Part shown: positions 5,254 to 22,279 of the stretch, in pieces
How the letters are laid out: every line of letters begins with the position of its first letter
Position numbering within the stretch: position 1 is the first letter of the stretch
Origin: an uncultured Flavobacterium sp.
Lineage (GTDB): Bacteria; Bacteroidota; Bacteroidia; Flavobacteriales; Flavobacteriaceae
Assembly (NCBI GenBank): GCA_963512955.1
Contig: CAUPOP010000010.1
Span: 14,157 to 78,156, forward strand
DNA length: 64,000 bases
Reading direction: 5' to 3'
Notes under the pieces: generated by a model
Told to the model about the DNA's origin: nothing
What the model saw: only the letters and a program-made list of their open reading frames with translations
Database searches by the model: none
Translations under genes and position numbers: made by a program

Positions 5254-6159
5254 ATGATTACAAAGGAAAAAATACTGAACAAAACGCACTACGGTTTAAA
5301 TATCTATGCGTTTATTTTGAGACAGTTTTATCCTAACGCTACCGTTCTCTCTCTTCATGGGAGAGAATGTAGTGTTACTTGTAACCCTTACAATCAGGAT
5401 AAAGAAACTTTATTGGTAAGTATCGTAAATAATTGTGCAACACATAAAGATGTCGAAATTTTGGATTTTCATGGAGATGTCTTCGACTTTGCTCAATTGT
5501 ATTTTCAATGTAACAATCAAACGGAATTACTTCAAAAAATCAATAAAGTAATGCATTTGAGAATTGATACAAAAGAAACAAAAGAGTACGATTACATTGA
5601 ACAAGAAGACACAACTTGGTATGTAAAATGCAGTTTTTACAAAGCTCCTGTAATGAATGTATTCCCATTGAAAGAATTAAAATTAAGCGAGATATACGAT
5701 TTAATTACAAGCAATACCTATGAAAGCGTTACAAACCATTTAAGAACGATTACAGACCTTAAAGAGAAAAAAAAGTACAAAGCCAACAAATTTGATTATG
5801 TAACCTTCTCAGGAACTTTTACAAAGCGAAACGATGATGATTTAATCAAACATTCACTATTAATGACAATTGATTTAGATCATTTGGAAAACCTAAACCA
5901 AACTAGAGAAATGTTATTGAAAGATGAATATTTTGAAACCGAATTACTTTTCAAATCTCCTTCAGGTGATGGTTTAAAATGGATTATAAAAATTGATTTA
6001 GAACAAGCCACGCATCAAGAATATTATACCGCCGTATCTAATTATTTAGAGCAGCAATACAGTATCAAAGTTGATGCATCAGGTAAAGACATTTCCCGAG
6101 CTTGTTTTTTATGTTATGATTCCGAAGCTTACATTAACCCTAGACACACAACAAAATGA
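5254..6159 (+). CDS. BT4734/VirE-N-like protein, probable archaeo-eukaryotic-type primase-polymerase
   Basis: MTIDLDHL (DxD) and SPSGDGLKWII (sGxG-h) motifs in the order expected of AEP PrimPol domains. Confidence 0.55.
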   Translation: MITKEKILNKTHYGLNIYAFILRQFYPNATVLSLHGRECSVTCNPYNQDKETLLVSIVNNCATHKDVEILDFHGDVFDFAQLYFQCNNQTELLQKINKVMHLRIDTKETKEYDYIEQEDTTWYVKCSFYKAPVMNVFPLKELKLSEIYDLITSNTYESVTNHLRTITDLKEKKKYKANKFDYVTFSGTFTKRNDDDLIKHSLLMTIDLDHLENLNQTREMLLKDEYFETELLFKSPSGDGLKWIIKIDLEQATHQEYYTAVSNYLEQQYSIKVDASGKDISRACFLCYDSEAYINPRHTTK

Positions 6160-7910
6160 ATAAGAAAATATTTAATCCAAAAGAATGGTTAGAAGCTCCT
6201 GCAAAGCAAGAACCTCAACCAAAACAAATGCCTACTCCTATTGTTTCCGACAATCAGTTTGAAAACTATTTACAACAAATCGAAAATACAGGAACAGACA
6301 TAACACAGGGCTACGACAACTGGAGAAACATAGGCTTTGCACTAGCTGACGAATTTGGCGAAATGGGTAGAGACTATTTCCACAGAATAAGTAAATTCAA
6401 TAGTGCTTATGATTACAAAGAATGTGATGTACAATACAACAATTGCTTAAAAGCTAAAGGAACAGGCGTTACAATGGCTACAATCTATTATTTAGCACAA
6501 CAGAACAACATTAAAATACATAATGAAAAACCAATAGTAAATAATGAAGTAACGGAAGTAAAAATAGAGAAAACACCAGTATTTCCAAGTCATATTTACG
6601 AAACCTTACCACTATTCCTAAAAGATTGCGTTAAACCTGCAACCACAAACGAGGAAAGAGATATTTTGTTATTGGGTACACTCACAACATTAAGTGCTTG
6701 CTTACCTTCTATTTATGGTATTTACGATGGTAAAAAAGTAATGGCAAACTTGTATTTATTTGTAACAGCTCCAGCATCAGCAGGTAAAGGAAGATTAACC
6801 CAATGCAAACAATTGGTGCAGCCTATTCACAGATTAAAGCGAGAACAAGCTACTTTAATAAAAAAGGAATACGAAGCTAACCTTGCAATGTACAACCAAG
6901 AAAAAGGTAAAAATCCAAATGCCGAAAAACCTGCAAAACCACCCGAAAGAATGTTGTTCATTCCTGCCAATAATAGTACAACAGGAGTATTTCAATTATT
7001 GTTTGATAATAACGGAGAAGGATTAATTTTTGAAACTGAAGGCGATACATTAGCACAAGCATTTAAAAGCGATTATGGCAATTATTCTGATGGTTTTCGT
7101 AAAGCATATCATCACGAAACAATAAGCTATTACCGTAGAACAGACCGTGAATATGTAGATATTGAAAACCCATGTTTATCAACGGTATTATCTGGAACAC
7201 CAAAGCAAGTTTCAGCCTTAATACCAAATGCAGAAAATGGTTTATTCAGTAGGTTTATGTTCTATTACATGAACATCACTCCTATTTGGAAAAACGTATT
7301 TGAAATTCAAACTACAAATGGATTAGACGATTATTACAACGAACTAGGCGGACAATTTTTGGAGTTCTACAAAGCGTTAAACAACAACCCCAGTATTCAA
7401 ATTAAATTGAGCCAAGGCCAACAATTACAATTCAATAAGTATTTTTCAAAAGTGCAAACCAAATATTTGAATATTCAAACCGATGATTACATTGCCACAA
7501 TCAGAAGAATGGGACTAAATGCCTTTCGTTTAATGATGGTAATCACAACTTTACGAATCATGGAAGACGGCGATTGTTCCACTACTAGAGAATGTGAAGA
7601 CATCGATTTTCAAAATGTACTCGATGTAGTAACGGTTTTGACACAGCATAGTAGCAAAGTGTTTAACGATTTACCTGTTGAAACTCCAGTTACCACAAGA
7701 ACAAACCGTAAAGAAAAGTTCTTAGAAATGCTTCCCGAAGCTTTCACAACAGCCGACTATTTAGCTATTTCAGAGAAATTAACTATTCCTCATAAAACTG
7801 CCGAAGGCTACATAACTGCATTTGCAAAAGCAGGTTTAATACATAGAGAAATGAATGGAAAATACCGCAACACAAGCAAACAAGGGAATAAGGATTTTAA
7901 GGGGAACTAA
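6156..7910 (+). CDS. PriCT-2 / DUF3987-type P-loop protein (VirE-like putative replicative helicase)
   Basis: N-terminal GYDNWRNIGFALADEFGEMGRDYFHRIS (primase C-terminal-2 like), then Walker A TAPASAGKGRL. ATGA overlap with the upstream gene. Confidence 0.6.
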   Translation: MNKKIFNPKEWLEAPAKQEPQPKQMPTPIVSDNQFENYLQQIENTGTDITQGYDNWRNIGFALADEFGEMGRDYFHRISKFNSAYDYKECDVQYNNCLKAKGTGVTMATIYYLAQQNNIKIHNEKPIVNNEVTEVKIEKTPVFPSHIYETLPLFLKDCVKPATTNEERDILLLGTLTTLSACLPSIYGIYDGKKVMANLYLFVTAPASAGKGRLTQCKQLVQPIHRLKREQATLIKKEYEANLAMYNQEKGKNPNAEKPAKPPERMLFIPANNSTTGVFQLLFDNNGEGLIFETEGDTLAQAFKSDYGNYSDGFRKAYHHETISYYRRTDREYVDIENPCLSTVLSGTPKQVSALIPNAENGLFSRFMFYYMNITPIWKNVFEIQTTNGLDDYYNELGGQFLEFYKALNNNPSIQIKLSQGQQLQFNKYFSKVQTKYLNIQTDDYIATIRRMGLNAFRLMMVITTLRIMEDGDCSTTRECEDIDFQNVLDVVTVLTQHSSKVFNDLPVETPVTTRTNRKEKFLEMLPEAFTTADYLAISEKLTIPHKTAEGYITAFAKAGLIHREMNGKYRNTSKQGNKDFKGN

Positions 7911-8041: not shown

Positions 8042-8341
8042 ATGAACTTTGGAGAACACATAAAACAATTACGGGAACAAAACCAACTACTGCAAAGGCA
8101 ATTAGCCAATGCGTTAGATATGGACACCGCTATGCTAAGTAAGATTGAAAGAGGAGAACGGAGAGCCAAAAGGGAACACATACCTATTCTTGCTTCACTT
8201 TTAAAAACTAATGAAAAAGAATTATTCACATTATGGTTTGCCGACCAAGTCTATAATTTAATCAAAGAAGAGAATAATGCTTCTGAAATATTACAAGCAG
8301 CAGAAAAAGAAATAATATCAAAATTGAAACACTATGAGTGA
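8042..8341 (+). CDS. XRE-family HTH transcriptional regulator
   Basis: FGEHIKQLREQNQLLQRQLANALDMDTAMLSKIERGERR is a classic Xre/Cro HTH. Confidence 0.8.
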   Translation: MNFGEHIKQLREQNQLLQRQLANALDMDTAMLSKIERGERRAKREHIPILASLLKTNEKELFTLWFADQVYNLIKEENNASEILQAAEKEIISKLKHYE

Positions 8342-9350
8342 TTTAATACCAAGTAATAACAACTTCATTTTATATACTGCTCCTAGTGGTAATATAAAAA
8401 TTGAAGCATACATACAAGACGAAACAATTTGGCTTACACAACAAAAAATAGCCGATGTTTTTGGTGTAGATAGAACTGTTGTAACAAAACACTTGAAAAA
8501 TATTTATCAAGAAGAAGAATTACAAAAAGAAGCAACATGTGCAAAATTTGCACAAGTTCAAATGGAGGGTGATAGAGAAGTAAAACGTCTAATTGAATAC
8601 TACAATTTAGATGCTATTATTTCCGTTGGTTATCGTGTAAATTCTTCTAAAGCAACACAGTTTCGAATATGGGCTAATAACGTATTAAAAGAATTCATTG
8701 TAAAAGGATTTGCAATGGATGATGACCGATTAAAACAAGGCACTACAGCATTCGGAAAAGATTATTTTAAAGAATTACTCGAAAGAGTACGTTCAATTCG
8801 TGCAAGTGAAAGACGAATTTACCAACAAATCACGGATATTTTTGCTGAATGTAGCATAGATTATGACCCAAAAGCCGAAATTACTAAAAACTTCTATGCC
8901 ATTGTTCAAAACAAATTCCATTTTGCAATTACAGGTAAAACAGCTGCCGAAATTATCTTTTTAAAAGCAGATAGCTCAAAACCTCAAATGGGATTAACAA
9001 CTTTCAAAAATGCTCCTGATGGTAGAATATTGAAATCAGATATTGAAATTGCAAAAAACTATTTAGAAGAAAAAGAAATCAAACAATTGGAGCGTACCGT
9101 ATCAGGTTACTTTGATTATATCGAAAATCTTATTGAACGCCAAAACACCTTTACAATGGAAGCATTAGCAGAAAGTGTAAACAAGTTTTTAAGCTTCAAT
9201 GAATACAAAATACTCGAAGGATTCGGAAAAGTATCGCATCAACAAGCAATCAATAAAGCAGCAAAAGAATACAATAATTTCAACAAAACACAAAAAATAA
9301 ATTCAGATTTTGATAAGCAAATAAAAGCACTTCAAAAGAAAAATAAATAG
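8334..9350 (+). CDS. RhuM-family protein
   Basis: IEAYIQDETIWLTQQKIADVFGVDRTVVTKHLKNIY...NLDAIISVGYRVNSSKATQFRIWAN matches my recollection of RhuM family proteins. 8-nt overlap with the Xre gene. Confidence 0.7.
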   Translation: MSDLIPSNNNFILYTAPSGNIKIEAYIQDETIWLTQQKIADVFGVDRTVVTKHLKNIYQEEELQKEATCAKFAQVQMEGDREVKRLIEYYNLDAIISVGYRVNSSKATQFRIWANNVLKEFIVKGFAMDDDRLKQGTTAFGKDYFKELLERVRSIRASERRIYQQITDIFAECSIDYDPKAEITKNFYAIVQNKFHFAITGKTAAEIIFLKADSSKPQMGLTTFKNAPDGRILKSDIEIAKNYLEEKEIKQLERTVSGYFDYIENLIERQNTFTMEALAESVNKFLSFNEYKILEGFGKVSHQQAINKAAKEYNNFNKTQKINSDFDKQIKALQKKNK

Positions 9351-9372: not shown

Positions 9373-10032
9373 ATGAGTTCAAAAGAAACACAAGTAAAAT
9401 CTAAAGAAAGAGTTACAGACCACGGCGAAGTATTTACTAACAAGCGTGAGGTAAATGCCATGTTAGACTTAGTGAAACAAGAAACAGAAAGAATAGATTC
9501 TCGTTTTTTGGAGCCTGCATGTGGAACAGGAAATTTCTTAGTAGAGATTTTAGAAAGAAAATTAAAAGTAGTTGAAGCTCGTTACAAAAAAAGCCAATTG
9601 GAATACGAAAGAAATGCTATTACAGCAATTTCAAGTATATATGGAGTAGATATATTAGAGGATAATGTAGATGCTTGTAGAGATAGATTGTTAGGTATAT
9701 TCACTAAATATTACATCAATCATTACAAAAAAGATTTTAACGAAGATTTCTTAAAAGCAGCTCAATTTATTTTATCTAAAAATATCATTTGGGGCAATGC
9801 TTTATCTATGAAAACGACAGAAGGTAAACCAATTACATTTTCAGAATGGAGTGCAGTAAATGGTAGTATGTTAAAAAGAAGAGATTTTCAATTAGATAAA
9901 TTATTAGAAAATGTGGAATACGATGATAATGAAATGAATTTATTTTCAGACCATCAAGAACCTGTTTTTATTCCACAACCAGTAGCTGAATTTCCATTAA
10001 CGCATTTCTTAAAAATAGCTGAAAATGATTGA
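9373..10032 (+). CDS. methyltransferase-like protein with SAM-binding motif but no NPPY catalytic motif
   Basis: HGEVFTNKREVNAMLDL (motif X), FLEPACGTGNFLVEILER (motif I), IYGVDILEDNVDACRDRL. The ORF ends before any (N/D)PP(Y/F). Confidence 0.6.
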   Translation: MSSKETQVKSKERVTDHGEVFTNKREVNAMLDLVKQETERIDSRFLEPACGTGNFLVEILERKLKVVEARYKKSQLEYERNAITAISSIYGVDILEDNVDACRDRLLGIFTKYYINHYKKDFNEDFLKAAQFILSKNIIWGNALSMKTTEGKPITFSEWSAVNGSMLKRRDFQLDKLLENVEYDDNEMNLFSDHQEPVFIPQPVAEFPLTHFLKIAEND

Positions 10033-11560
10033 AACCAATTACAATCCAGATGTATTAACGTGCCTTGCTAATTTAAGCAATGACGAGGTATTTACACCTC
10101 CTACACTGGCTAACCAAATGTTAGATACTTTACCGCAAGAATTATTTAGCAATTCCAAAACAACATTTCTCGACCCAGTTAGTAAGTCTGGTGTTTTCTT
10201 ACGAGAAATAGCAAAACGTTTAATGATAGGTTTAGAAACTGAAATTCCTAACCAACAAGAACGATTAAACCACATTTTTAGCAAACAATTATTTGGTATT
10301 GCCATTACAGAACTTACCTCGCTATTATCTCGTAGAAGTGTATATTGTTCTAAAATTGCCAACGGTAAATATTCTATTTGTGAAACCTTTACAAACGAGC
10401 AAGGAAATATCCTTTTTGATAAAACCGAACACAATTGGAAAAACGGCAAATGTACCTTTTGTAATGCCAGCCAAGAAGTCTATGAGCGTGAGGATGCTTT
10501 AGAAACTTATGCTTACCAATTTATACATACCAACAACCCTGAAAAAATATTTAAGAATATGAAGTTTGATGTCATTATAGGAAACCCACCATATCAATTG
10601 AGCGATGGTGGCAATGGTAAAAGTGCAAAACCTATTTATCATAAATTCATTCAACAAGCAAAAAAATTAAATCCTAGATTTTTATCAATGATTATTCCAG
10701 CTCGTTGGTATGCTGGTGGTAAAGGATTAGATGATTTTAGAGAAGAAATGCTTACCGATAATAGAATACGCAAAATTGTAGATTTCGAAAATTCAAACGA
10801 AGTATTTCCGGGTGTTGATGTTGCTGGTGGTATTTGCTATTTCTTATGGGAAAAAGATAATCAAGGATTATGTGAAGTTATCAATTATAGTGATGGCTCA
10901 AAAGTAAATTCTGAAAGAGCATTAAATGAGTTTCCGATATTAATAAGACAAAGTCAAGCAATTCCAATTATTAGAAAAGTAATAGCAAACAATAAACAAG
11001 CATTAAATGTACGTGTGTCTTCAAGAAAACCTTTTGGATTACCTACTAATTATGCTCCTAAGAAAAAAGGAATACCTTGTTGGTTTACTCAAAAAATTGG
11101 CAAACAATTTGCAAATCCAGAAGATGTTTCAGACCCTTTCAAAATTTTAGACAAATGGAAGTTTTTAGCTCCAAAAGCTCCAATTGCAGGACAAACTGAT
11201 TTTTCTAAACCTGTTGGTTTTTATTATGAAGGAAACACATTAATTGCAAAACCAGGCGAATGTTGTACCGAATCGTTTATTGTTTTAGGTGCTTTCAAAA
11301 CCGAGAATGAGGTACTTGCTTATAAATCTTATATTTTCACAAAAACAGTTCGCTTTCTTTTATTACAAACTGTCGTTTCACAGGATGTTACAAAAAACAA
11401 TTTTCAATTTGTTCCTGATTTAATAAAGTATGAAGGAATATATACGGATGAAATGTTGAGAAAAAAGTGGGGTATAAATGAAGAAGAATGGCGATACATT
11501 GACACAAAAATAAAAGCAACAGAATTAATGGGAAATAGAAAAAACGAAGACAATGAGTAA
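10025..11560 (+). CDS. N6-adenine DNA methyltransferase (Eco57I-like gamma class)
   Basis: DEVFTPPTLANQMLDTL (motif X), FLDPVSKSGVFLREI (motif I with Gly replaced by Lys), FDVIIGNPPYQLSDGG (motif IV). 8-nt overlap with the upstream ORF. Confidence 0.8.
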   Translation: MIETNYNPDVLTCLANLSNDEVFTPPTLANQMLDTLPQELFSNSKTTFLDPVSKSGVFLREIAKRLMIGLETEIPNQQERLNHIFSKQLFGIAITELTSLLSRRSVYCSKIANGKYSICETFTNEQGNILFDKTEHNWKNGKCTFCNASQEVYEREDALETYAYQFIHTNNPEKIFKNMKFDVIIGNPPYQLSDGGNGKSAKPIYHKFIQQAKKLNPRFLSMIIPARWYAGGKGLDDFREEMLTDNRIRKIVDFENSNEVFPGVDVAGGICYFLWEKDNQGLCEVINYSDGSKVNSERALNEFPILIRQSQAIPIIRKVIANNKQALNVRVSSRKPFGLPTNYAPKKKGIPCWFTQKIGKQFANPEDVSDPFKILDKWKFLAPKAPIAGQTDFSKPVGFYYEGNTLIAKPGECCTESFIVLGAFKTENEVLAYKSYIFTKTVRFLLLQTVVSQDVTKNNFQFVPDLIKYEGIYTDEMLRKKWGINEEEWRYIDTKIKATELMGNRKNEDNE

Positions 11561-14045
11561 AAACTATTTTCCAGAAAAAAGCATTCCAAAAGTGTATGCT
11601 TATACCGATACAAGATTTCCAAATTGCATAAAAGTGGGTTATACCACCAAAACTGCGGTAGAAAGAGTAAAAGAACAATATCCCGTAAAATTACCTAATA
11701 TGAGTTATGAAATCATATTAGAAGAATTAGCAATGCGTAATGATGGCACATTATTTACCGATAAAGACATTCATAAATTACTAAATAACAAAAAAGTAAA
11801 ACATATCAATGGAGAATGGTTTGAATGTTCACTAAAAGAAATAAAAGCTTGTATTCTTGAAATAAAAACAGGTATTGTTAACGAAGACAAACGTACACTC
11901 GATTTCGGATTACGACCAGAACAAGCCGAAGCCATAAAAAAAACAGAAGCTTATTTTATCAGTTCTAAAAAAGAAAATAAAAATCAAATCCCTCATTTTC
12001 TTTGGAATGCAAAAATGCGTTTTGGTAAAACCTTTACAACCTATCAATTAGCTAAAAAAATGGGTTGGACTAAAATATTGGTTTTAACCTTTAAACCTGC
12101 GGTTCAAAGTGCTTGGAAAGAAGATTTAGAATCGCATATCGATTTTGCAGGTTGGCAATTTGTTTCTAATAAAGAAGATGATTTAAGTTATGAAAACATT
12201 GATACAAAGAAACCGTTTGTATTCTTTGGTTCCTTTCAAGATTTATTAGGTACTAACTCTGCAGGAGGTATCAAATCTAAAAATGAATGGGTACATACTA
12301 CTAATTGGGATTGTGTTGCTTTTGACGAATACCATTACGGAGCTTGGCGAGAAAATGCAAAAGAACTTTTTGAAGCTGAAAGTGCCAAAGAACAACAGTT
12401 TGGGGAAGGAGTCGGAATTGAGTATTTTGATGAAAGTATAATGCCAATTACGACAGGGCATTATTTGTATTTGTCGGGTACACCTTTCAGAGCTATATCA
12501 TCAGGAGAGTTTATCGAAGAGCAAATTTTCAACTGGACATATTCAGATGAACAACGAGCGAAAACAGAATGGAAAGGGGATAAAAATCCTTATTTATCAT
12601 TACCAAGAATGGTGATGTTAACATATCAAATGCCTGACACTATTGTAGAAGTAGCAATGAAAGGAGAATTTAATGAGTTTGATTTAAATGTATTCTTTTC
12701 TGCTGATGGCGAAGGTAATAATGCAAAATTCAAATACGAAGATTACGTTCAAAAGTGGCTGGATTTAATTAGAGGTAACTTAGCGGAAACAACCATTGAT
12801 AATTTAAAAATGGGTGCAAAGAAACCACCAATGCCATTTTCAGATGCTCGACTATTAAATGTGTTACAGCATACTTTTTGGTTTTTACCAACGGTTGCAT
12901 CTTGTCATGCAATGAAAAATTTAATAGATCAAAAGCAAAATAAATTTTACCATGATTATGAAGTTGTTGTAAGTGCAGGAACAGGAGCTGGTATTGGTGT
13001 TGAAGCATTAAAACCAGTAGAAAAAGCTTTAGGCAATCCATTACAAACTAAAACAATAACACTTTCTTGTGGTAAATTAACAACTGGTGTTTCTGTCAAA
13101 CCATGGACAGGAATATTTATGTTACGTAATTCATCAAGTCCCGAAACATATTTTCAAGCTGCATTTAGAGTGCAAACACCTTGGACTGTAAAAAATCCTG
13201 ATAAGAATGCTCCTAATCGTGAAGAAATAATAAAACATGAATGTTATGTTTTTGATTTTGCTCCAGATAGAGCTTTACGACAAATTGCAGATTATAGTTG
13301 TCGACTAAATGTTGGTGAAAGTAATCCCGAAAAGAAAGTTGAAGAATTTATCAACTTCTTGCCAGTTTTGGCTTATGATGGTAGTTCAATGAAAGAAATC
13401 GATGCTGCTGGAATTTTAGATATTGCAATGAGCGGAACAACTGCAACACTATTAGCAAGACGATGGGAAAGTGCTTTATTGGTTAATGTTGATAATTTTA
13501 CTTTACAAAGGTTGATGGATAATGAGGCTGCAATGCAAGCCTTAAGTAACATTGAAGGCTTTAGAAATCTAAATCAAGACATAGAAACTATTATCAATAA
13601 ATCAGAATCTATTAAAAAAGCAAAAGCCGAAGCAAACGAAAAAGAGCTTACTAAAAAAGAAAAAAAAGAACTTTCAGACGAAGAGAAAGAATACAAAAGC
13701 ATCAGAAAACAAATTCAAGAAAAGCTTATCAAATTTGCTACTCGTATTCCTGTATTTATGTATTTAACTGATTACAGAGAAAGAAGTTTAAAAGATGTAA
13801 TTACTCAATTAGAACCTGCATTATTCAAAAAAGTAACAGGATTAAATGTTAAAGATTTTGAATTGTTAGTCAGTCTTGGTGTTTTCAATAGTGCATTAAT
13901 GAATGATGCTGTCTATAAATTTAAACGATATGAAGATGCAAGTTTGTCATATTCTGGCATTAACAAACATCCTGAGGATAAAATAGGTCTTTATGATACG
14001 GTAATAAGTGCGGAGGAATTTAAACAAGAATTTGAGAATATCTAA
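11553..14045 (+). CDS. T5orf172 (GIY-YIG-like) domain fused to SF2 DEAD/DEAH-type helicase; putative restriction/translocase subunit
   Basis: N-terminal KVYAYTDTRFPNCIKVGYTT...INGEWFECS. Helicase motifs AKMRFGKT (I), AFDEYHY (II), LSGTPF (III), YFQAAFRVQT (VI). 8-nt overlap with the MTase gene. Confidence 0.75.
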   Translation: MSKNYFPEKSIPKVYAYTDTRFPNCIKVGYTTKTAVERVKEQYPVKLPNMSYEIILEELAMRNDGTLFTDKDIHKLLNNKKVKHINGEWFECSLKEIKACILEIKTGIVNEDKRTLDFGLRPEQAEAIKKTEAYFISSKKENKNQIPHFLWNAKMRFGKTFTTYQLAKKMGWTKILVLTFKPAVQSAWKEDLESHIDFAGWQFVSNKEDDLSYENIDTKKPFVFFGSFQDLLGTNSAGGIKSKNEWVHTTNWDCVAFDEYHYGAWRENAKELFEAESAKEQQFGEGVGIEYFDESIMPITTGHYLYLSGTPFRAISSGEFIEEQIFNWTYSDEQRAKTEWKGDKNPYLSLPRMVMLTYQMPDTIVEVAMKGEFNEFDLNVFFSADGEGNNAKFKYEDYVQKWLDLIRGNLAETTIDNLKMGAKKPPMPFSDARLLNVLQHTFWFLPTVASCHAMKNLIDQKQNKFYHDYEVVVSAGTGAGIGVEALKPVEKALGNPLQTKTITLSCGKLTTGVSVKPWTGIFMLRNSSSPETYFQAAFRVQTPWTVKNPDKNAPNREEIIKHECYVFDFAPDRALRQIADYSCRLNVGESNPEKKVEEFINFLPVLAYDGSSMKEIDAAGILDIAMSGTTATLLARRWESALLVNVDNFTLQRLMDNEAAMQALSNIEGFRNLNQDIETIINKSESIKKAKAEANEKELTKKEKKELSDEEKEYKSIRKQIQEKLIKFATRIPVFMYLTDYRERSLKDVITQLEPALFKKVTGLNVKDFELLVSLGVFNSALMNDAVYKFKRYEDASLSYSGINKHPEDKIGLYDTVISAEEFKQEFENI

Positions 14046-14108
14046 AATGCTATCTGTAAAAGGGAATAAATCTAATTTTTAAAATGTAGAATTTAAAAAC
14101 AATACACT

Positions 14109-16181
14109 ATGAGCCAACAATTGTATTTCAACCTACTAACTTTTGAATGGCCACAAAAGCCAATAACATTATACTTTAGTTTAGAACAAATTAGAGGAAG
14201 TGTTTTGGTGTATAAATCTAACTACCCAAACAACATAAATGAAATTTTCCCCAATCTAGGAAACGAGGGTATTGAGAAAATCTACACCTCTTTCGATAAT
14301 AATCTCGAAGGTACTACCCCATTGGACATTGATTTCAATGATAAAAATGTTTTTTTCTATAAAGATTTTTTGAATTATAAACTCTACAATCATTTCAAGT
14401 CGGTTAAGGGAGTTATAGCTTCAAAGAACTTTATCAAAGAACCTCAAATTTGGATAAATATTGAAAAAGAACAAACAAAAGACTTTTGGGTGTTCAATAA
14501 ATTTTCTTTAAAAATTCAATTCAGTAAAGTATCAAAATTTCCTGAGTTAGTTATCGCCTATGACGACACTTCAAAAATGTATAAAAAATCAGTAGTTGAA
14601 GTACTAGAAGATATTGCTCCAATTCATATTAAAAAGATAATTACAAATAAATCCGTCTATAACTATCAAAAGATTTCTCCAGAACTAAAAACAAGTTTAG
14701 ATCTTGAGAAAACATGGCCTATTCTAAATCGTGATTTAGCTTCAAAACTAAACATCGAAGTTGAGATTGAAAAAACAAAAAATAAATACACACGTTATAA
14801 ATTAGCAATAGACGATTTTGTCAACACCTATTTAGATAATAAAGATTTCAAAACCCTGATTCCCTTACATTCCTCAGAATACTTAAAAGTCGAAGAAACA
14901 AGGATATTAAACGTAGATAAAAATTGTAATGAGTTAATATTTAAAGATTATGTTATTGGTTCCATTCCAAAAATAGATTTCCCGAGAAATGGTGCTTTAG
15001 TAACATCTCCAAAACCAAACATTACTATTTTCTATATTTATCACGAAAGTCATGCAGAAGTCTGTAGTTCATTAAGTAAACACTTAAAAAATGGTACAGG
15101 AGATTATTACAAAGGTCTTTACAAGTTTGCTAATATCGAATCGCATACCGATATGACATTAGCTATAAAATACAAAGATGAAAATAATCCATTGCCTGAG
15201 ATTTTAGAAAAGTTAAATAGTGCTAATTTTAATTATGATAATACCTACGTGGCGTTTTATATTAGTCCGATTGGTAAGTTTGATGAAGATAAATCACGCA
15301 AAAAAATATATTATCGAGTAAAAGAAGAATTACTAAAGAGAAGAATTATTTCACAAGTAATAGATTACGATAAACTAAAGTCAAAAATTAATAATTATCA
15401 ATTTGAATTAAACAATATCTCATTAGCATTATTGGCTAAATTAGAAGGTAAACCTTGGCAATTATCTACAAGTCCAAACAAAGATTTAATCATTGGTGTA
15501 GGTGCATTTAGAAACATAGATGAAAATACGCAATATGTAGCAAGTGCATTTAGTTTCAATAATAGTGGGTCTTTCAAAAAGTTTGAATATTTCACGAAAA
15601 GCGATACAGTTCAACTAGCAGGTTCAATATGTAATGCGATAGATCAATATGCAAAACTAGAAGACAATCCAACCAAAGTAGTAATACACTTTTATAAAGA
15701 AATGAGCGACAAAGAGCTAAAACCTATCATTCAAAAAATGAATAGATTAAACTTAAATTGTCCATTATACATCATTAACATAAATAAAACTGATTCAGAA
15801 GATTTAATAGCTTTTGATATGAATTGGCACAATCGTTTAATGCCCAGAAGCGGAACAATAATCAAGATTGGTAAAAAGCAATTTTTACTTTTCAACAATA
15901 CAAGATACAACGATTTTGACAAACATTCTGATTTAGAAGGCTACCCATTCCCTATTAAATTGGGTATTTCATCACCAAATAATGAAGAAGAATTAGACAG
16001 TTACGAAATCAAAAAACTAATTGAGCAAGTATATCAATTCAGTAGATTATATTGGAAATCATTAAGACAACAAAACGTACCTATAACCATCAAATATCCA
16101 GAAATGGTAGCCGAAATAGCACCTCACTTTGAAAGTGGTAACATTCCACCTCACGGTAAAGAGATTTTATGGTTTTTATAA
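14109..16181 (+). CDS. prokaryotic Argonaute (MID-PIWI), predicted catalytically inactive, long-B-like
   Basis: MID-like KKIYYRVKEELLKRRIISQVI. PIWI-like NISLALLAKLEGKPWQL and RQQNVPITIKYPEMVAEIA, with hydrophobic C-terminus EILWFL. Expected catalytic positions read DLIIGVGAF (no Asp) and KVVIHFYKE (no DG). Confidence 0.8.
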   Translation: MSQQLYFNLLTFEWPQKPITLYFSLEQIRGSVLVYKSNYPNNINEIFPNLGNEGIEKIYTSFDNNLEGTTPLDIDFNDKNVFFYKDFLNYKLYNHFKSVKGVIASKNFIKEPQIWINIEKEQTKDFWVFNKFSLKIQFSKVSKFPELVIAYDDTSKMYKKSVVEVLEDIAPIHIKKIITNKSVYNYQKISPELKTSLDLEKTWPILNRDLASKLNIEVEIEKTKNKYTRYKLAIDDFVNTYLDNKDFKTLIPLHSSEYLKVEETRILNVDKNCNELIFKDYVIGSIPKIDFPRNGALVTSPKPNITIFYIYHESHAEVCSSLSKHLKNGTGDYYKGLYKFANIESHTDMTLAIKYKDENNPLPEILEKLNSANFNYDNTYVAFYISPIGKFDEDKSRKKIYYRVKEELLKRRIISQVIDYDKLKSKINNYQFELNNISLALLAKLEGKPWQLSTSPNKDLIIGVGAFRNIDENTQYVASAFSFNNSGSFKKFEYFTKSDTVQLAGSICNAIDQYAKLEDNPTKVVIHFYKEMSDKELKPIIQKMNRLNLNCPLYIININKTDSEDLIAFDMNWHNRLMPRSGTIIKIGKKQFLLFNNTRYNDFDKHSDLEGYPFPIKLGISSPNNEEELDSYEIKKLIEQVYQFSRLYWKSLRQQNVPITIKYPEMVAEIAPHFESGNIPPHGKEILWFL

Positions 16182-16188
16182 TATCAAG

Positions 16189-18060
16189 ATGAAAGAACAA
16201 AAACAGTTAGAAAATCTATTCTTACATATTTTCCAGACAAGGGAATACATAATTAATTCTCTTGAACTAAAAAAGTATTCTGAATTAGAGAAAAAAGGGA
16301 TAATAAAAAATAATTCAGATGGTAATTATGAAGTGGATTTATATTCATCATATATATATGATCACTTAAAAAAATTAGTTACGATTAAACTAGCTACTGG
16401 CTTAACTGATGACATTGAGGAATCTTTCAAAACTATTCATAATCTTGAAGAACTAATAAAGAATGAATATAATTATGGTAATATAATAAATGCTTACACT
16501 CAAATATTTGATGCATTTAGAGTTCATTATTTAACAGAATTAGATACAAAAGGGATAGATGTTATATTATATTTCAATGAGCTAAAAAAGAAATCTAATG
16601 TAATTTATGAGTTAAGAAATTTTGAAAAAATATTTTTTATTTTTCTTGTTTCAAAAGATATTAGCATTGAACAAACAAGTGAATTTTTAGAAGCAAATAA
16701 TGATGAAAACAGCAGACATTACTTAAATAATTACCTGTATTCGATTATTGAAAAAAAAGTAGAATTTTCAATTAATTTGATTGAATATCTTTCAAAAAAA
16801 CATGAAAATGAAACACCTCATTATCTAGTAATTTTAATTAGTTCTTTAATTAATAAAGGGCAAATAGAATATTTAGTAAAACTTAAAGAGAGGTTAACAA
16901 AATCCACAAAAGAAGCATTATGGGCTTATACCTTACTGAATATTAATTCACAAATATTATATAATGAATTATTAGAAATCTTAGTAAAGGATAATAGTAT
17001 TGAATATTTATATCATAAAACTAGAATAATTGAAAGCTTAATGAACTCCCAGTTTATTACTTCTGAAGATTCTGAAACGCTATCAAACAAATTATTTGAG
17101 TTTTTTGAAAATCCTGATGATAATGAAATACACAGCTATTTCCATACAATTACATATGGTTTTGAAAAATTTGAAGATTTAAAATACGAACTTTTGCATG
17201 GTTACCTAAACCGAACACAGAACATCAAAACAATAAGTTCTTTCTTTTATAATTTTAAAGAACCCAAATATTTATTTCATTTAATTGGTGTCATTTATAA
17301 TAATGGTTGGCATAGAAACTCTATAAATCTTTTTGAACAACCATTATCACATTTTTGGTCAACTTCAAGAGACAAAACAGAAGAATTTATTTTATCATTA
17401 ATTTCTACCAAACAAAAAACAGGTTTATTACCTATTGAAATAATTATGACTGGTAGAGAAACACCAATGCAAATTGATTTATTAAAACTTAATACTGAAC
17501 AAGAACAAGTTTTAGCAATAGCAATGATTTGCAATTTCCCACATTCATTTGACAAACTATTACCAATATTAATCAAATTAAAAGATTCTAAATTCCCCAA
17601 AGTGATTGAAAACCTTCAAATGCAGTTAAGCATTCTTGTTTATGAATGTTATAACGAAACATTAATTGAATGGTTAGAAAACTTAATACCAAAATCAAGA
17701 AAGAAAACTGCGTTTTTGAAACCTATAAAACTATCTCTTGAGCTATATAAAGAGATTAAAGAGTTAAAACATAAGAATAACGACTTAAATCCTTATTACA
17801 ATGAAAAATCATTAATGGATTTATATTATAATTTAGAAAACGAAAATAGAGCTAAAATGATGGAAAGCGTCAGAAATAACCCTACGGGTCTTTCGAGCAT
17901 GTTTAAAAATACATCTATAATTCGAGGTAATAGTTGGCGTTTCGAACATGAAGAAAATGTTATGCCACTAGGTAAAGTAGAAACTCAAATGTATATAGAT
18001 ACCAGAGCCTATAAAAATCCTGAATTATATGAATATCAACTTCAAAGATTCAATAAATAA
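16189..18060 (+). CDS. hypothetical protein, pAgo-associated, apparently all-alpha
   Basis: ATG 7 nt after the pAgo stop; about 620 aa, rich in Leu/Ile/Glu/Lys/Asn. No catalytic or transmembrane motif recognised. ATG at 16189 preferred over the track's TTG at 16129, which overlaps the pAgo 3' end. Confidence 0.6.
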   Translation: MKEQKQLENLFLHIFQTREYIINSLELKKYSELEKKGIIKNNSDGNYEVDLYSSYIYDHLKKLVTIKLATGLTDDIEESFKTIHNLEELIKNEYNYGNIINAYTQIFDAFRVHYLTELDTKGIDVILYFNELKKKSNVIYELRNFEKIFFIFLVSKDISIEQTSEFLEANNDENSRHYLNNYLYSIIEKKVEFSINLIEYLSKKHENETPHYLVILISSLINKGQIEYLVKLKERLTKSTKEALWAYTLLNINSQILYNELLEILVKDNSIEYLYHKTRIIESLMNSQFITSEDSETLSNKLFEFFENPDDNEIHSYFHTITYGFEKFEDLKYELLHGYLNRTQNIKTISSFFYNFKEPKYLFHLIGVIYNNGWHRNSINLFEQPLSHFWSTSRDKTEEFILSLISTKQKTGLLPIEIIMTGRETPMQIDLLKLNTEQEQVLAIAMICNFPHSFDKLLPILIKLKDSKFPKVIENLQMQLSILVYECYNETLIEWLENLIPKSRKKTAFLKPIKLSLELYKEIKELKHKNNDLNPYYNEKSLMDLYYNLENENRAKMMESVRNNPTGLSSMFKNTSIIRGNSWRFEHEENVMPLGKVETQMYIDTRAYKNPELYEYQLQRFNK

Positions 18061-19781
18061 TGAATATCAAACCTACAATAATAAAAGAGTATTTACAATC
18101 TTTAAAGGAAGATAATGAATTAGATGTAATCTTTACAATTTTACTTCAAACACTTGAATATGAAATACTCTCTACTCCAAAAGAATATAAAGGCTTTTCT
18201 CAATATGGCAAAGACATAGTAACTGTAAGAGTAGATCCTACGGATGGTATAAAAAAACGATTCTATTTTGAGTTAAAAGCTGGTGATATTGACTCACAAA
18301 AATGGAATATGCCCGATAATGGAGTACGAGATACTCTTAGAATGACTGTCGATGCCGATTTTAAAACTACTTATAAAGATTTCGATAAGTTACCAATTAA
18401 AGTTATTTTGGTATTTAATGGAATGGTAAGTGAAAAAATTCGAACATCACTTAATGGTTTTTCTCAAAAAGAATTTATTGAAAAAGGTATTGAATTTGAA
18501 GAGTGGAATATCTATAAAATTTCTGAATTACTCTCAAATGAAATTTTTAGTAAATATTTATTGATTAATGATGAAAATATTAGACTTTTCAACAGAGTTT
18601 TAGTAAATCTAAATGTAGGTGAAAATGTTTCAAATGATTTTGATTCACTATTGAATAATTTACTATTTAAAAATTCATTTACTAAAACAAAAGGCAAATT
18701 AAGTCGCTCACAAAAACTTATATTTCAATCCGTTAACTTAATAGCATATATAATTTATACAGAATCAAAAAACTACAATAACTTATCAATTGCAAAAAAA
18801 TACTTAACTCATTTAATACTAAAATATTGGTATTGGATTTTAAAAAACAAATTAGAAACGAACAAAGAAATTTTAGCTTTATTCAGTCAATTTTACATTT
18901 TTTATAATTCCACTATTGAAGAACTTTTAGAAAGGAATTTAAATCTATTAGAATTAAAGGATGGCTTACACTATGAAAATGGAGGTAGATATGAACAGAT
19001 AGGTTATACAATTAGAAGTTATGATTTTAATGTATTACTAAATAGTTTTATTATCTCTTTAAAAGATAAAATTCAAAAAGACCAGTATAAAGGCTATAAT
19101 GATAGAATAAACAACACCTTACAGAATATAAATGTTCTTTCAAGACCTTTACTAGATATTCACTCAATTCCTATAATTGACAATATTAATCTATTAATTT
19201 ATTTTGGCGACATTGAATCAGCGAAGCAATATCTTATGAATATATTAGGTTATTTAAAGTTTCTTAAAAAGAAATATAATAAATTTCCGGATGCAGCAAA
19301 CAATATAGAGAGTGTAATAAAATATACAGTTACTGGCATAAAACCTGTTTATTATATTGATTCTGTTTCACCATTATTAGCAATTATAATGGAATATATC
19401 GCAATATTAGATTTAGAAAAAGCATACTATGAAACAAGAAAATTCATCATTGAAAATGATATTACTTTAGGTTTATTTATTCCGCATCATAGCATTAATT
19501 CCAATTCAAAACATCTTATTGAAGATACTGAAAATGATTTAGAAGAACAATTATTTTCGAGGTCAGTTAATGAAGGTTATCAAATTGAAACAAGTATGTA
19601 TTCTGAATTTGACAAAGAATTATCATTTCAAGATTTCAAGAGTAAAATTTTAAAAAGAAAAGAAGAATTTCAATATGAATACAGAACTGATAAATATGGT
19701 TTCTCTTCATTAAGAACAATTGCTCATTATTATTTCAAAACACCTTATTTCCCTGATTATTGGCGTTATCATTTAAAATAG
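18060..19781 (+). CDS. hypothetical protein, pAgo-associated, with possible N-terminal PD-(D/E)xK nuclease fold
   Basis: TAATG stop/start overlap with the upstream gene. LQTLEYEIL ... QYGKDIVTV ... RFYFELKAGDI gives E-helix, D52 and E71-x-K73 in PD-(D/E)xK order and spacing. The remaining ~400 aa look helical. Confidence 0.55.
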   Translation: MNIKPTIIKEYLQSLKEDNELDVIFTILLQTLEYEILSTPKEYKGFSQYGKDIVTVRVDPTDGIKKRFYFELKAGDIDSQKWNMPDNGVRDTLRMTVDADFKTTYKDFDKLPIKVILVFNGMVSEKIRTSLNGFSQKEFIEKGIEFEEWNIYKISELLSNEIFSKYLLINDENIRLFNRVLVNLNVGENVSNDFDSLLNNLLFKNSFTKTKGKLSRSQKLIFQSVNLIAYIIYTESKNYNNLSIAKKYLTHLILKYWYWILKNKLETNKEILALFSQFYIFYNSTIEELLERNLNLLELKDGLHYENGGRYEQIGYTIRSYDFNVLLNSFIISLKDKIQKDQYKGYNDRINNTLQNINVLSRPLLDIHSIPIIDNINLLIYFGDIESAKQYLMNILGYLKFLKKKYNKFPDAANNIESVIKYTVTGIKPVYYIDSVSPLLAIIMEYIAILDLEKAYYETRKFIIENDITLGLFIPHHSINSNSKHLIEDTENDLEEQLFSRSVNEGYQIETSMYSEFDKELSFQDFKSKILKRKEEFQYEYRTDKYGFSSLRTIAHYYFKTPYFPDYWRYHLK

Positions 19782-19857
19782 GAACGCTATCGCTGTCGTA
19801 TTTGCATCCCACCCAGCCCAACGCTCCCAGCCGCACAAGTGGTTTCTCCCACCGCAC

Positions 19858-20598
19858 TCAGCACTTGTTTCCCCAACGGTACAGCACTTTTATTTTCCTG
19901 TTTTATTTTCCCAACCCCATCGCACATAAAACAGGAAAATAAAAGAGCTGTACTTCCAACCCTAAAAACAAGAGCTGAAACCCAACGCTAAAACCACTCC
20001 CAAGCTATTTTACATAATGAAGGCAACATTATAGTTCAAAAAAAAGAGATAATATTGGAAAAACGTTATTTTTTTGAACTATAATTTCATTATGTAAAAT
20101 AGCCGCACTCCAACGCTCCCACCCGAAATAGGAACAGTATTTTCATTGTTTTTTGAAGGTGCAATACAATTCCATAACAACACTTCAGCAAGCATTGAAA
20201 ACCCTAATTTCAATCAACACTCTTGCACCCTCAAAAATCAAAACCAAGAAAGAGTAACAAATTTTAGTGCTGGATATAAAGCAGTTTTATTTGTTTTTTC
20301 AATGGTTTTTATATCCAACCCTTAAAATCTGTTACCCTTTCAGAACTACCCGATTCAAAAAGAAAATCCCACCAAAAAACAACTCCCGATTAAGTCAAGG
20401 AAACAAAACAAAAAAAATAAAAAAAAGAATGCAAAGGTAAGTTTCGGGTTTACAAAAAAGCAAGTTCAAGCCTACGGTTTTTAAAAAAATCTCCACCCAA
20501 ACATTTCCAATCCACTTCCCGATTAAACAACGAAAACCCTATTCCAGTTCAACCATATGGGTAGTATTTTTTTAAAAAAACTTGCTTTTTTGAAACCC
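19858..20598 (-). other. cluster of five long imperfect inverted repeats in an ORF-free 0.88-kb region (candidate structured RNA or replication/transfer origin)
   Basis: Hairpin A is 19858-19978 (24/25-bp inner stem). B is 20003-20103 (18+17 bp). C is 20150-20237 (14/15 bp). D is 20248-20341 (~30 bp). E is 20446-20598 (20 bp). All four transition mismatches are A.C on + and therefore G.U on -, hence the tentative minus-strand call. Confidence 0.5.
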
Positions 20599-20661
20599 TA
20601 CACTAGAACAGATGGCTTTCTTTTTTTTCCTTTTTTCTTTTGAAAAATTTTATGGCGAAGC

Positions 20662-21111
20662 ATGAAATGCGAGCATAACTTTAAATCCGATATTATGACT
20701 TATCACAACGTATTTACACACCAAAAAGACAGAATTTACAGCCAACCCCACTTCTTCGTTTTAAGCAAAGGAAATAATAGCGGAAAACCTCTAAAAGAAC
20801 CTTGCCCGAACTGCTTCGTAATACTGGTAAAAACCGAAGAAGAAGCCGAAAACCTCTATTGGATAGCATTAAGCTTATGGAAATCAAAATTCTGGTATCA
20901 ACACTTAGTCGGTTCAGTTATTCCGTTTCTTCGATTACAGGAGTTTAAAAGCAATTTCAGAGATAAAGTGCTACAAATCTACAAGGAACACAAAAAACAC
21001 ACTGAAAACGTGGAAAAACTCAAAAAACTAGAAAGTCTATCAACTATCTACAGCAAAAATTTAGACACCATAGAAAGATTAAAAGCTGCAATACTTCATT
21101 ATTACCTGTAA
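20662..21111 (+). CDS. hypothetical protein
   Basis: 149-aa ORF followed by a clear terminator; no family recognised. Confidence 0.5.
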   Translation: MKCEHNFKSDIMTYHNVFTHQKDRIYSQPHFFVLSKGNNSGKPLKEPCPNCFVILVKTEEEAENLYWIALSLWKSKFWYQHLVGSVIPFLRLQEFKSNFRDKVLQIYKEHKKHTENVEKLKKLESLSTIYSKNLDTIERLKAAILHYYL

Positions 21112-21115
21112 TCCA

Positions 21116-21140
21116 AGCCCGATTTTTTCGGGCTTTTTCT
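21116..21140 (+). terminator. rho-independent terminator
   Basis: AGCCCGA-tttttt(loop)-TCGGGCT followed by TTTTCT. Confidence 0.7.
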
Positions 21141-21161
21141 TTAAAATTCTCATTGAAAATT

Positions 21162-21226
21162 TGTCATATATGACACTAAAAAAATGTCCCTGCATTATTT
21201 TGCACTTTGACATAAATAACTTGTCA
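21162..21226. promoter_or_regulatory. candidate operator sites built from TGTCA/TGACA half-sites
   Basis: Perfect 14-bp palindrome TGTCATATATGACA at 21162-21175 and TGACA-N9-TGTCA at 21208-21226, upstream of the 21383 gene. Confidence 0.35.
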
Positions 21227-21382
21227 TAACCCAAGCAAAGCAACAAAACGCAAAAGAATGCAAAGCCTTATTTAACAAGAGTTTAGCACAATTATTGCCC
21301 TATATTTACACAAATGGTACAGCTCTTGGACAAAGCCGTACCAAGTCCAAGTAAGTTATTAATTCATAAAAATTTTCATCAA

Positions 21383-22027
21383 ATGGGAAAAATTAATCAA
21401 GGTATTCTAGGAGGAGTATCAGGTAAAGTAGGTAATGTTATTGGTGGTAACTGGAAAGGGATTGACTACATCAGAGTTAAACCTTCAAATGTTGCAAATC
21501 CAAGAACAGCAGGTCAAGTAATGCAAAGAACAAAATTTACTGTGACTTTAGAGTTTTTACAAGCGATTAAGCCTTTTGTTAAAGCAGGTTACAGAAACCT
21601 TGCAAACAAAAAGACAGAGTTTAATGCTGCAATGTCTTACATCTTAAACAATGCAATTACAGGAGTAGATCCTGATTACATTGTAGATTACACATTAGCA
21701 CTTTTGAGTAGAGGTGGTTTATCAATGCCTTTAAACCCTTCAGCTGATGCTTCAACTTCTGGAGAGGTTACATTCACTTGGGGAGACAACTCGGCTGAGA
21801 GTAATGCAAATGCTACTGATAAAGTAATGTTGTTAGTTTACAACCCAGCTAAAAAAGAATCTGTTTCAATTGTTGGGGATGGAAACACTCGTGTTGATGG
21901 TTCTTACAACGTAGCTATTCCAACTACCTATGCAGGAGACACTTTAGAGCTTTTTATAGCGTTTATGTCGGCTGATGGAACACAACTATCAAACAGCATG
22001 TATTTAGGCTCTCAAATCGCAGGATAA
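21383..22027 (+). CDS. DUF6266-like hypothetical protein
   Basis: MGKINQGILGGVSGKVGNVIGGNWKGIDYIRVKP N-terminus resembles my recollection of Bacteroidota DUF6266 proteins. Internal ATG at 21383 preferred over 21314. Confidence 0.5.
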   Translation: MGKINQGILGGVSGKVGNVIGGNWKGIDYIRVKPSNVANPRTAGQVMQRTKFTVTLEFLQAIKPFVKAGYRNLANKKTEFNAAMSYILNNAITGVDPDYIVDYTLALLSRGGLSMPLNPSADASTSGEVTFTWGDNSAESNANATDKVMLLVYNPAKKESVSIVGDGNTRVDGSYNVAIPTTYAGDTLELFIAFMSADGTQLSNSMYLGSQIAG

Positions 22028-22046
22028 GTTTAAATTACTTAAAATT

Positions 22047-22075
22047 AAGTCGCTCATAGTAGCGACTTTTTTTAT
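22047..22075 (+). terminator. rho-independent terminator
   Basis: AAGTCGCT-catagt-AGCGACTT followed by a T-run. Confidence 0.75.
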
Positions 22076-22155
22076 ATATTTACATGCTGATAAATAAATC
22101 AACTTTCCTTTATTTACTTGTTTTTAAGCCTTTGTTTATAAGAATTTGATGCTTA

Positions 22156-22168
22156 TTTGTTGCCCAAA
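22156..22168. repeat. right att candidate (direct repeat of 1901-1913)
   Basis: TTTGTTGCCCAAA is identical to 1901-1913. With flanks, TTATTTGTTGCCCAAA also matches 1846-1860 apart from one C indel. Confidence 0.6.
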
Positions 22169-22279
22169 CCTTGTAAAGCATTATAAATACTACTAACTTC
22201 AAATATTGTATCGGAAAGTAAGTTATTTATGTATTTTTAAAATTATTTTTAAAGCTTGAAAAACTATCATAATCCAAAA

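Follow-up and report, generated by a model that had tools for sequence, protein, structure and literature searches.

An Olokun oloA-oloB gene pair directly behind a pAgo gene in a Flavobacterium integrative element

Olokun is a defence system whose OloB subunit has been described as a PD-(D/E)XK nuclease. Only for PfOlokun is it known that OloA and OloB assemble 2:2, that the complex cleaves DNA and that it defends against phage (bioRxiv 10.1101/2025.07.10.664194). That preprint groups Olokun with 'nuclease-NTPase' systems and places the OloA contact on an 'N-terminal helical domain' of OloB. A second arrangement relevant to the locus studied here is BPAN, a long-B pAgo with its associated nuclease, bAgaN (PMC10620215, PMC13535254). 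BPAN places a PD-(D/E)XK nuclease downstream of the long-B pAgo, and the two form no stable complex before activation (PMC10620215). The bAgaN nuclease, encoded by a single gene, carries its RecB-like nuclease domain at the C-terminus and co-evolves with pAgo. Hachiman HamA and other nuclease-accessory defence pairs consist of a PD-(D/E)xK nuclease subunit under the control of a larger partner.

The window, the whole 64,000-nucleotide stretch that was analyzed, carries three consecutive genes on the same strand: a pAgo gene, oloA and oloB, with a gap of 7 nt between the first two and an overlap of 1 nt between the last two. Such a tight array behind a pAgo gene resembles a pAgo-effector operon, and the sequence-only reading had taken the third protein for the effector nuclease of a pAgo operon. 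The comparative context corrects this reading: two defence cassettes, independent of each other, lie one behind the other in the cargo hotspot of an integrative element. We put the probability at about 85% that, as a whole, the third gene encodes the OloB nuclease of a complete Olokun system and that pAgo is an independent neighbouring cassette. Family membership, fold, conservation pattern and cassette independence were computed directly.

The oloA and oloB genes

The open reading frame at 18060..19781 (+) is present and encodes 573 amino acids. Its translation agrees exactly with the residues cited in the sequence-only reading, D52 in GKDIV and E71-L-K73 in RFYFELKAG. The start is correct, because the ATG overlaps the oloA stop (TAATG) and M1 is invariant across homologues. 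The PADLOC OloB profile (PDLC03926) matched the protein over essentially its full length at an E-value of 1.4e-134, with residues 6-572 aligned to profile positions 3-554 of 556, and was the sole match for 46 of 46 diverse homologues. The protein is therefore not new; it is OloB, the nuclease subunit of Olokun, a two-gene anti-phage system that has been described before. Pfam gave no matches for OloA or OloB, the latter having none at an E-value of 0.1 or better, Mrr_cat (PF04471) included. Phmmer and family-profile searches of PDB with OloB matched no chain at E-values up to 10, in a set that included the EcAgo entry 23wq.

Directly upstream, oloA (16189..18060, +) encodes the 623-aa helical partner subunit, which the PADLOC OloA profile (PDLC03925) matched full length at 6.7e-63. 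Its coding sequence begins with the ATG at 16189 and not with the TTG at 16129; this start and the length of 623 aa agree with three orthologues (L029, L002 and L003). The order of the genes is the canonical oloA-oloB order. We scanned OloA for a P-loop or Walker A motif and found none, and a P-loop was rejected despite the 'nuclease-NTPase' grouping of the preprint.

The locus shares with described Olokun the gene order, full-length profile matches to both subunits, an OloB made of a PD-(D/E)xK head and a helical domain, and an all-helical OloA that lacks a P-loop. It differs in several respects. The window OloB belongs to a Bacteroidota subclade with only 19-25% identity to the remotest family representatives, it has a canonical E-x-K where the majority of members have V/T/Q-x-K, its loop after K73 is 3 residues shorter than in some close relatives, and its genes lie 7 nt behind a pAgo gene.

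We also considered whether oloAB is a decaying, non-functional remnant in this element, as the same cassette has suffered a large deletion in a sister lineage. This is extremely unlikely, since both open reading frames are full length and retain every family-invariant residue, the proteins of the cassette are 84-96% identical to intact orthologues, and identical copies were found on contigs from two or more sequencing runs.

In the model that we favor, oloA and oloB make up a complete Olokun anti-phage system that travels as cargo on the integrative element. In OloB, roughly the first 150 aa would be a metal-dependent PD-(D/E)xK endonuclease head, with E17, D52, K73 and the canonical E71 of the subclade as candidate catalytic residues, and the remaining 420 aa or so a helical domain. 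By analogy with PfOlokun from another bacterium, the all-helical OloA may bind OloB in a 2:2 complex, which could set two nuclease heads side by side and enable the complex to nick or cut invading phage DNA. That OloB is an active nuclease in this host, that it assembles 2:2 with OloA, which DNA it cuts and that the system acts against phage are points that we infer or take from the literature.

A predicted nuclease head and a helical domain in OloB

Full-length OloB searches with Foldseek were swamped by helical-repeat proteins; for this reason, the head (residues 1-150; 18060..18509, +) was modelled separately. The AlphaFold model of these residues has an alpha-beta-beta-beta-alpha-beta core with a pLDDT of 85, which is the endonuclease core that the sequence-only reading had called for. 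Its elements as assigned by DSSP are helix 21-31, strands 35-38, 53-58 and 65-73, helix 89-98 and strand 113-119. In this predicted model, D52 directly precedes strand 2, and E71 and K73 lie inside strand 3.

The head-only search returned clean nuclease matches in which restriction-type proteins ranked first. Against BFVD, the best was a phage 'restriction endonuclease' (E-value 3.3e-5, TM 0.55), followed by an Mrr-domain protein (2.2e-3), with HamA, a resolvase and VRR-NUC weaker and further down. Against PDB, the matches included MspJI (probability 0.97, TM 0.50), AspBHI (probability 0.89), MUS81, HamA, EcoT38I and McrC, all with weak E-values of 0.02 or higher. At the sequence level, Mrr_cat was the one Pfam family to match more than 1 of the 46 OloB members, and it did so weakly in 2 of the 46, with a best E-value of 0.024. 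Together with the near-invariance of D52 and K73 described below, the predicted topology and the restriction-type matches support an N-terminal head of the restriction-endonuclease (Mrr-like) fold, as had been proposed from the letters.

The closest structural matches of the head, the catalytic domains of the Mrr/type IV and MspJI-AspBHI type, have the same core topology and likewise place an Asp ahead of strand 2 and x-K within strand 3. In contrast to these domains, the OloB head has no significant Pfam Mrr_cat sequence match, is N-terminal and joined to a 420-aa helical domain instead of a DNA-recognition domain, and belongs to a protein that requires a partner. In its dependence on a partner protein OloB is like HamA, itself among the fold matches, and similar nuclease subunits; however, OloA differs from their partners in having no helicase or NTPase motif.

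Conservation was examined in 119 family representatives obtained by clustering at 50% identity, which extend down to 19% identity. Among the 573 positions, D52 ranked second (118/119 representatives), K73 fifth (117/119) and E17 eighth (116/119), while E71 ranked 300th. Position 71 is Glu in only 26 of the 119, and 78% of the family carry V, T or Q there; the Glu is restricted to the Bacteroidota-type subclade, with full invariance confined to close relatives (46-93% identity). Of the three residues earlier proposed as the active site, D52 and K73 thus held up and E71 did not as a family-wide acid, E17 being the conserved partner. Nor did the proposed acidic helix fare well: E33 and E35 are not conserved, and conservation of acids falls instead on E17, E20 and D22, by the start of helix 21-31. 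On the basis of the alignment, the family-wide candidate catalytic set is E17/D52/K73, with E71 a feature of the subclade; the corresponding codons are at 18108-18110 (E17), 18213-18215 (D52), 18270-18272 (E71) and 18276-18278 (K73), all on the + strand. The exact metal-binding set is uncertain because E71 is not conserved across most of the family.

The bare sequence motif was rejected as evidence. When the first 170 residues of this Lys-, Asp- and Glu-rich protein were shuffled, 76% of the shuffles contained a D-x(10-30)-[DE]-x-K pattern; by itself the motif therefore does not exceed chance expectation, and its weight derives solely from conservation and fold. For specialists, the conserved set of OloB differs from the textbook D...ExK, and the Bacteroidota-type subclade, which holds the textbook Glu, is convenient for mutational work.

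That most of the family has V, T or Q in place of the canonical middle acid could also mean that the head is a degenerate restriction-endonuclease fold that serves only in DNA binding or sensing, and that OloB is not itself a nuclease. Pfam nuclease models all fall below threshold on OloB, which would agree with such a loss. However, active PD-(D/E)xK enzymes are known with Q at the middle position or with a relocated acid, such as MspJI (D-QxK) and Cfr10I. Furthermore, D52, K73 and E17 are within the top eight conserved positions, the pattern expected of catalytic residues, and the full D...ExK motif is present in the window subclade. Wild-type PfOlokun was reported to cleave DNA in vitro, although a clean active-site mutant test was impossible, as the mutation disrupted the complex (10.1101/2025.07.10.664194). 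We consider a head limited to DNA binding or sensing very improbable and prefer the reading of OloB as a nuclease.

The remainder of OloB (residues 151-573; 18510..19778, +) is all-helical and solenoid- or TPR-like by DSSP on the AlphaFold model, in agreement with the helical character already suspected for the last 400 or so residues. That region had been thought to match nothing known; it is the conserved helical domain of OloB. Its helical-repeat matches in PDB were weak only (Foldseek), and its invariant positions are few (P363, D366, P410, S437 and P475). Taking the role from the preprint (10.1101/2025.07.10.664194), this domain is probably the OloA-binding scaffold; the 'N-terminal helical domain' to which the preprint assigns the contact conflicts with the domain order of the window OloB.

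The neighbouring pAgo gene

The long-B-type pAgo gene (14109..16181, +; 690 aa) was identified by its Piwi domain and the PADLOC pAgo profile (2e-247), and forms a separate cassette outside Olokun. The closest solved structures are AfAgo, RsAgo and EcAgo, and in the segment IGVGAF another residue has taken the place of the first catalytic Asp. Judged from this replacement, the protein resembles the inactive AfAgo and RsAgo. Given the 7-nt gap, pAgo is probably co-transcribed with oloAB.

These features make the locus similar to BPAN, in which an inactive long-B-type pAgo, here judged from the first catalytic Asp, is followed by a same-strand gene for a nuclease of the PD-(D/E)xK superfamily. 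OloB and OloA could accordingly be imagined as the effector of an inactive pAgo, activated on guide-directed target recognition; no effector is known for this pAgo subclade, which is associated with VirE-N domain proteins (orthogroup og_54). However, the bAgaN domain arrangement and its co-evolution with pAgo do not apply here. The window nuclease is OloB, with an N-terminal head and with OloA as its partner, and it matches the OloB profile only.

Linkage was likewise absent elsewhere. No pAgo was present within 8 kb of any of 67 OloB loci from other genomes, while oloA was directly upstream of oloB in the same orientation in approximately 61 of them. In Flavobacterium sp. RS13.1, OloB is 96% identical to that of the window and is located behind an RlaP nucleotidyltransferase gene with no pAgo nearby, and because of this identity there is no sign of co-adaptation. 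From the other side, pAgo orthologues (91%, 84%, 70% and 49% identity) have unrelated genes downstream of them. Of 5 other pAgo contexts, 4 lack any Olokun genes and the fifth retains a dead OloA stump only, so that intact pAgo-Olokun linkage was found in none.

The fifth context is a related element (L075) with a pAgo that is 86% identical to the one in the window. In L075-L077, pAgo is intact, and a 2.95-kb deletion has taken out the whole of oloB together with the greater part of oloA. A 282-aa gene after pAgo in L075 was rejected as an alternative pAgo partner, as it is a truncated OloA. The lineage has thus lost OloB and kept pAgo. At the DNA level (blastn), homology to other Olokun loci spans 16187-19780 only, and homology to pAgo elements without Olokun covers 14108-16181 and resumes at 20411; homology therefore ends exactly at the cassette borders. 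Olokun was also active without pAgo in published tests. The BPAN-like reading is very unlikely on this evidence, even though the pAgo-oloA junction occurs in L075 as well. The genes called second and third of a pAgo operon are oloA and oloB of an autonomous Olokun, and pAgo is an independent single-gene cassette in the same defence hotspot and no functional partner of oloAB.

The junction common to the window and L075 (86% DNA identity) and the 7-nt gap show that the juxtaposition of pAgo and oloA is not brand new, having persisted in two diverged lineages. Only for this reason is there room for a modular pAgo-Olokun hybrid, in which a pAgo of the og_54/VirE-N subclade would have locally recruited co-transcribed OloAB as its effector, and guide-directed target binding by pAgo would license OloB cleavage. 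We give this very little credence and retain the reading of two independent cassettes.

The spacer and the element

The same-strand array ends at a non-coding spacer after oloB (19782..20660, no strand assigned) that contains long inverted repeats. One of these, at 19879-19953, has arms of 28 nt, and a nested palindrome occupies 20004-20103. A sigma-70 promoter/terminator scan, unsuited to Bacteroidota promoters, was uninformative, with 46 sites compared to 41.7 expected.

The replication backbone of the element encodes VirE-N/PriCT-2/DUF3987 proteins. The association with og_54/VirE-N that has been reported for a minority of long-B pAgos finds its explanation here: pAgo is cargo of an element with this backbone.

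Family identity of the gene pair

The ORF at 18060-19781 (+) encodes 573 aa, and its translation contains the strings quoted in the sequence-only reading, with D52 within GKDIV and E71-L-K73 within RFYFELKAG. Its ATG overlaps the stop codon of the upstream gene by one base (TAATG), and M1 is invariant among homologues. The upstream gene (+) encodes 623 aa from ATG 16189, the true start as in its orthologues. Neither ORF had a match in Pfam. With the PADLOC defence-system profiles, the downstream ORF was matched over its full length by OloB (1.4e-134), the upstream ORF by OloA (6.7e-63), and the ORF preceding oloA by pAgo, the Argonaute family (2e-247). OloB was the sole PADLOC match for all 46 sampled family members. 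The product of the ORF is a member of an already known family. That oloAB is a decaying cassette is scarcely credible given that the ORFs are intact.

Olokun, a two-gene system active against phages, has been described before; a 2025 preprint treats OloB as a PD-(D/E)XK nuclease and OloA as its adaptin-like partner in a 2:2 complex of ~278 kDa. In vitro, some phage DNAs (T7, SEC 17 and SPO1) were reportedly degraded, plasmid was nicked and E. coli DNA was left uncut (10.1101/2025.07.10.664194).

Predicted fold and active site of OloB

Whole OloB was modelled with AlphaFold2 (pLDDT 84.9). The model has a helix at 21-31, strands at 35-38, 53-58 and 65-73, a helix at 89-98, a strand at 113-119, a helix at 125-138 and a strand at 145-149; all is helical beyond, as had been read from the sequence. 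D52 directly precedes strand 2, and E71 and K73 lie inside strand 3. The N-terminal head is thus predicted to be a restriction-endonuclease core with the three residues correctly placed. The nuclease head was N-terminal and the helical domain C-terminal in all 46 diverse aligned OloB sequences. The preprint (10.1101/2025.07.10.664194) has OloA contact an "N-terminal helical domain" of OloB, at odds with the order here, in which the nuclease head takes up residues 1-150 (18060-18509).

Foldseek matches of full-length OloB were dominated by helical-repeat proteins, with MspJI and AspBHI already present. The head was also modelled separately (residues 1-170, pLDDT 85); its best PDB matches were MspJI (probability 0.97, TM 0.50), AspBHI, MUS81, Hachiman HamA, EcoT38I and McrC, all weak by E-value (≥0.02). 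The predicted viral structures matched by the head were a "restriction endonuclease" from a phage (E 3.3e-5, TM 0.55), a protein without a name (1.4e-4) and one with an Mrr domain (2.2e-3), ahead of HamA-like, resolvase and VRR-NUC proteins. Mrr_cat was the only Pfam family matched, weakly, by more than one of the 46 members, and no solved structure was detected by sequence or profile searches.

OloB is rich in Lys, Asp and Glu, and when its first 170 residues were shuffled 2000 times, the pattern D-x(10-30)-[DE]-x-K appeared in 1527 of the results. The bare motif therefore carries no weight, and the question rests on conservation, fold and context. D52, E71 and K73 were invariant in 29 relatives (46-93% identity), a set too shallow as a test because mean column identity was 64%. 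Among 1.84 billion cluster representatives, a profile search yielded 578 relatives, from which the 46 members were sampled, and the deep conservation set comprised 119 full-length representatives down to 19% identity. D52 was present in 118, K73 in 117 and E17 in 116 of these, ranking 2nd, 5th and 8th in conservation among 573 positions. In contrast, E71 ranked 300th and was Glu in only 26 of 119, with V, T, Q, I or S elsewhere. The acidic-helix residues proposed earlier, E33 and E35, showed no conservation, unlike E17, E20 and D22, where helix 21-31 begins. The signature of the family is thus E17 ... G-x-D52 ... h-x-K73, to which the subclade of the window adds the textbook Glu (E71). The nuclease call was right, but its description of the active site needed correction.

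In the PD-(D/E)xK superfamily, relocated or substituted middle acids are familiar, as in MspJI with D-QxK. We therefore take the OloB site to be a genuine active site whose metal ligands are uncertain. The conservation ranks make it very improbable that the head is non-catalytic.

Relation of oloAB to pAgo and proposed mechanism

We compared 67 OloB loci from one-genome-per-species contigs, at least 58 of which had at least 5.6 kb of sequence upstream. OloA was directly upstream of OloB in about 61. At none of the 67 did tblastn with the window's pAgo (14109-16181, +) find a relative, or a pAgo-family profile HMM a pAgo ORF. The OloB most similar to that of the window, at 96% identity (Flavobacterium sp. 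RS13.1), lies behind an RlaP nucleotidyltransferase gene. DNA homology between the window and OloB loci was limited to 16187-19780, the oloAB pair within two bases. In RS13.1, two RlaP-family nucleotidyltransferase genes and a Kinase-PolyVal gene lie around the near-identical oloAB (L029 5368-6126 and 9728-11501); a 1690-aa DUF5724/DUF4132 protein comes next, making another dense defence-like neighbourhood.

Orthologues of pAgo (91%, 84%, 70% and 49% identity) occur in the same kind of element with different flanking cassettes: type I, FokI-like or other restriction systems upstream, and small unknown genes or a type I R-M system downstream. Homology to two such loci, L068 and L070, covers 14108-16181, the pAgo gene only, and returns at 20411 ahead of DUF6943 and DUF6266 genes. 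In one lineage (L075-L077), pAgo is 86% identical, and the same 7-nt gap as in the window separates it from a 282-aa ORF that corresponds to OloA residues 1-269, so that the intact pAgo is directly followed by a stump of OloA (10081-10929 in L075). A 2.95-kb deletion, equivalent to 16997-19950 of the window, accounts for the missing remainder of oloA and the absence of oloB; its right end is inside a hairpin with 28-nt arms (window 19879-19953). The shared junction and the stump indicate that the pAgo-olo juxtaposition is older than the split between this lineage and that of the window. Yet pAgo stays intact without Olokun, and Olokun is everywhere else without pAgo. Cassette borders coincided with ORF starts or stops within 0-35 bases (window 14074-16181, 16187-19780 and 20411-22221 against L029 (the RS13.1 locus), L068, L070, L075 and L078); in this defence hotspot pAgo is swapped on its own, and oloA and oloB are swapped together.

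OloB had been called the third protein of a pAgo operon. With pAgo at 0 of 67 OloB loci and other neighbours beside pAgo orthologues, that description fails, and the oloB-pAgo link is positional only. The only interesting alternative, that OloB is coupled to pAgo as in BPAN (a long-B pAgo with its nuclease bAgaN), is quite unlikely. BPAN nucleases likewise form no stable complex with pAgo before activation, so absent co-evolution is not absolute proof against coupling; however, bAgaN is a different protein, with its nuclease domain C-terminal rather than N-terminal as in OloB and a strictly conserved operon, and the co-occurrence expected of such a pair was found in none of the tests.

Beyond the family membership, fold, conservation pattern and cassette independence demonstrated here, a mechanism can be proposed. 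OloA, all-helical and without a Walker motif, would bind OloB, probably via the C-terminal helical domain of the latter. The heterotetramer would pair the nuclease heads, and invading DNA would be cut or nicked by metal-dependent cleavage involving D52, K73 and E17, plus E71 in the window's subclade.

The Argonaute and the surrounding element

The pAgo has Gly in place of the first catalytic Asp, and the relatives of solved structure closest to it are AfAgo, EcAgo and RsAgo, which makes it an Argonaute of the long-B type that is probably inactive. Song et al. noted that a VirE-N protein (orthogroup og_54) is encoded 2-8 genes upstream of a minority of long-B pAgos, which lack a known effector and whose function they left open (PMC10620215). 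The window's pAgo fits this description. The association is probably hitch-hiking and not function, because the VirE-N/BT4734-like protein is here part of the backbone (integrase and primase) of an integrative element (5254-7910).

Upstream of the defence genes are trmE (374-1774), an integrase (2373-3467), DUF6617 and HTH_17 proteins, the BT4734-like/VirE-N protein (5254-6159) and a PriCT-2/DUF3987 primase-helicase-like protein (6156-7910). There follow on one strand HTH, RhuM, a split Eco57I-type methyltransferase, an 830-aa T5orf172 protein, pAgo, OloA and OloB. The RhuM-family protein (8334-9350; Pfam 6.9e-108) lies behind the small HTH gene with which the cargo region opens, and in L068, L075 and L078, which are related elements, the same HTH gene marks where the variable region begins. 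Three translationally coupled ORFs with 8-nt overlaps (9373-14045) encode the N-terminal piece of a methyltransferase (219 aa), an Eco57I-type methyltransferase (511 aa) and the 830-aa protein, which has an N-terminal T5orf172 (GIY-YIG-like) domain and also resembles type IIG enzymes in their non-methylase part. The three together resemble a type IIG-like R-M system in split form whose nuclease module is unusual. Behind oloB is an 880-bp non-coding stretch (19782-20660), C-rich on the forward strand and partly common to related elements. It contains long inverted repeats, whose arms lie at 19879-19906 and 19926-19953, as well as a nested palindrome (~100 nt, 20004-20103).
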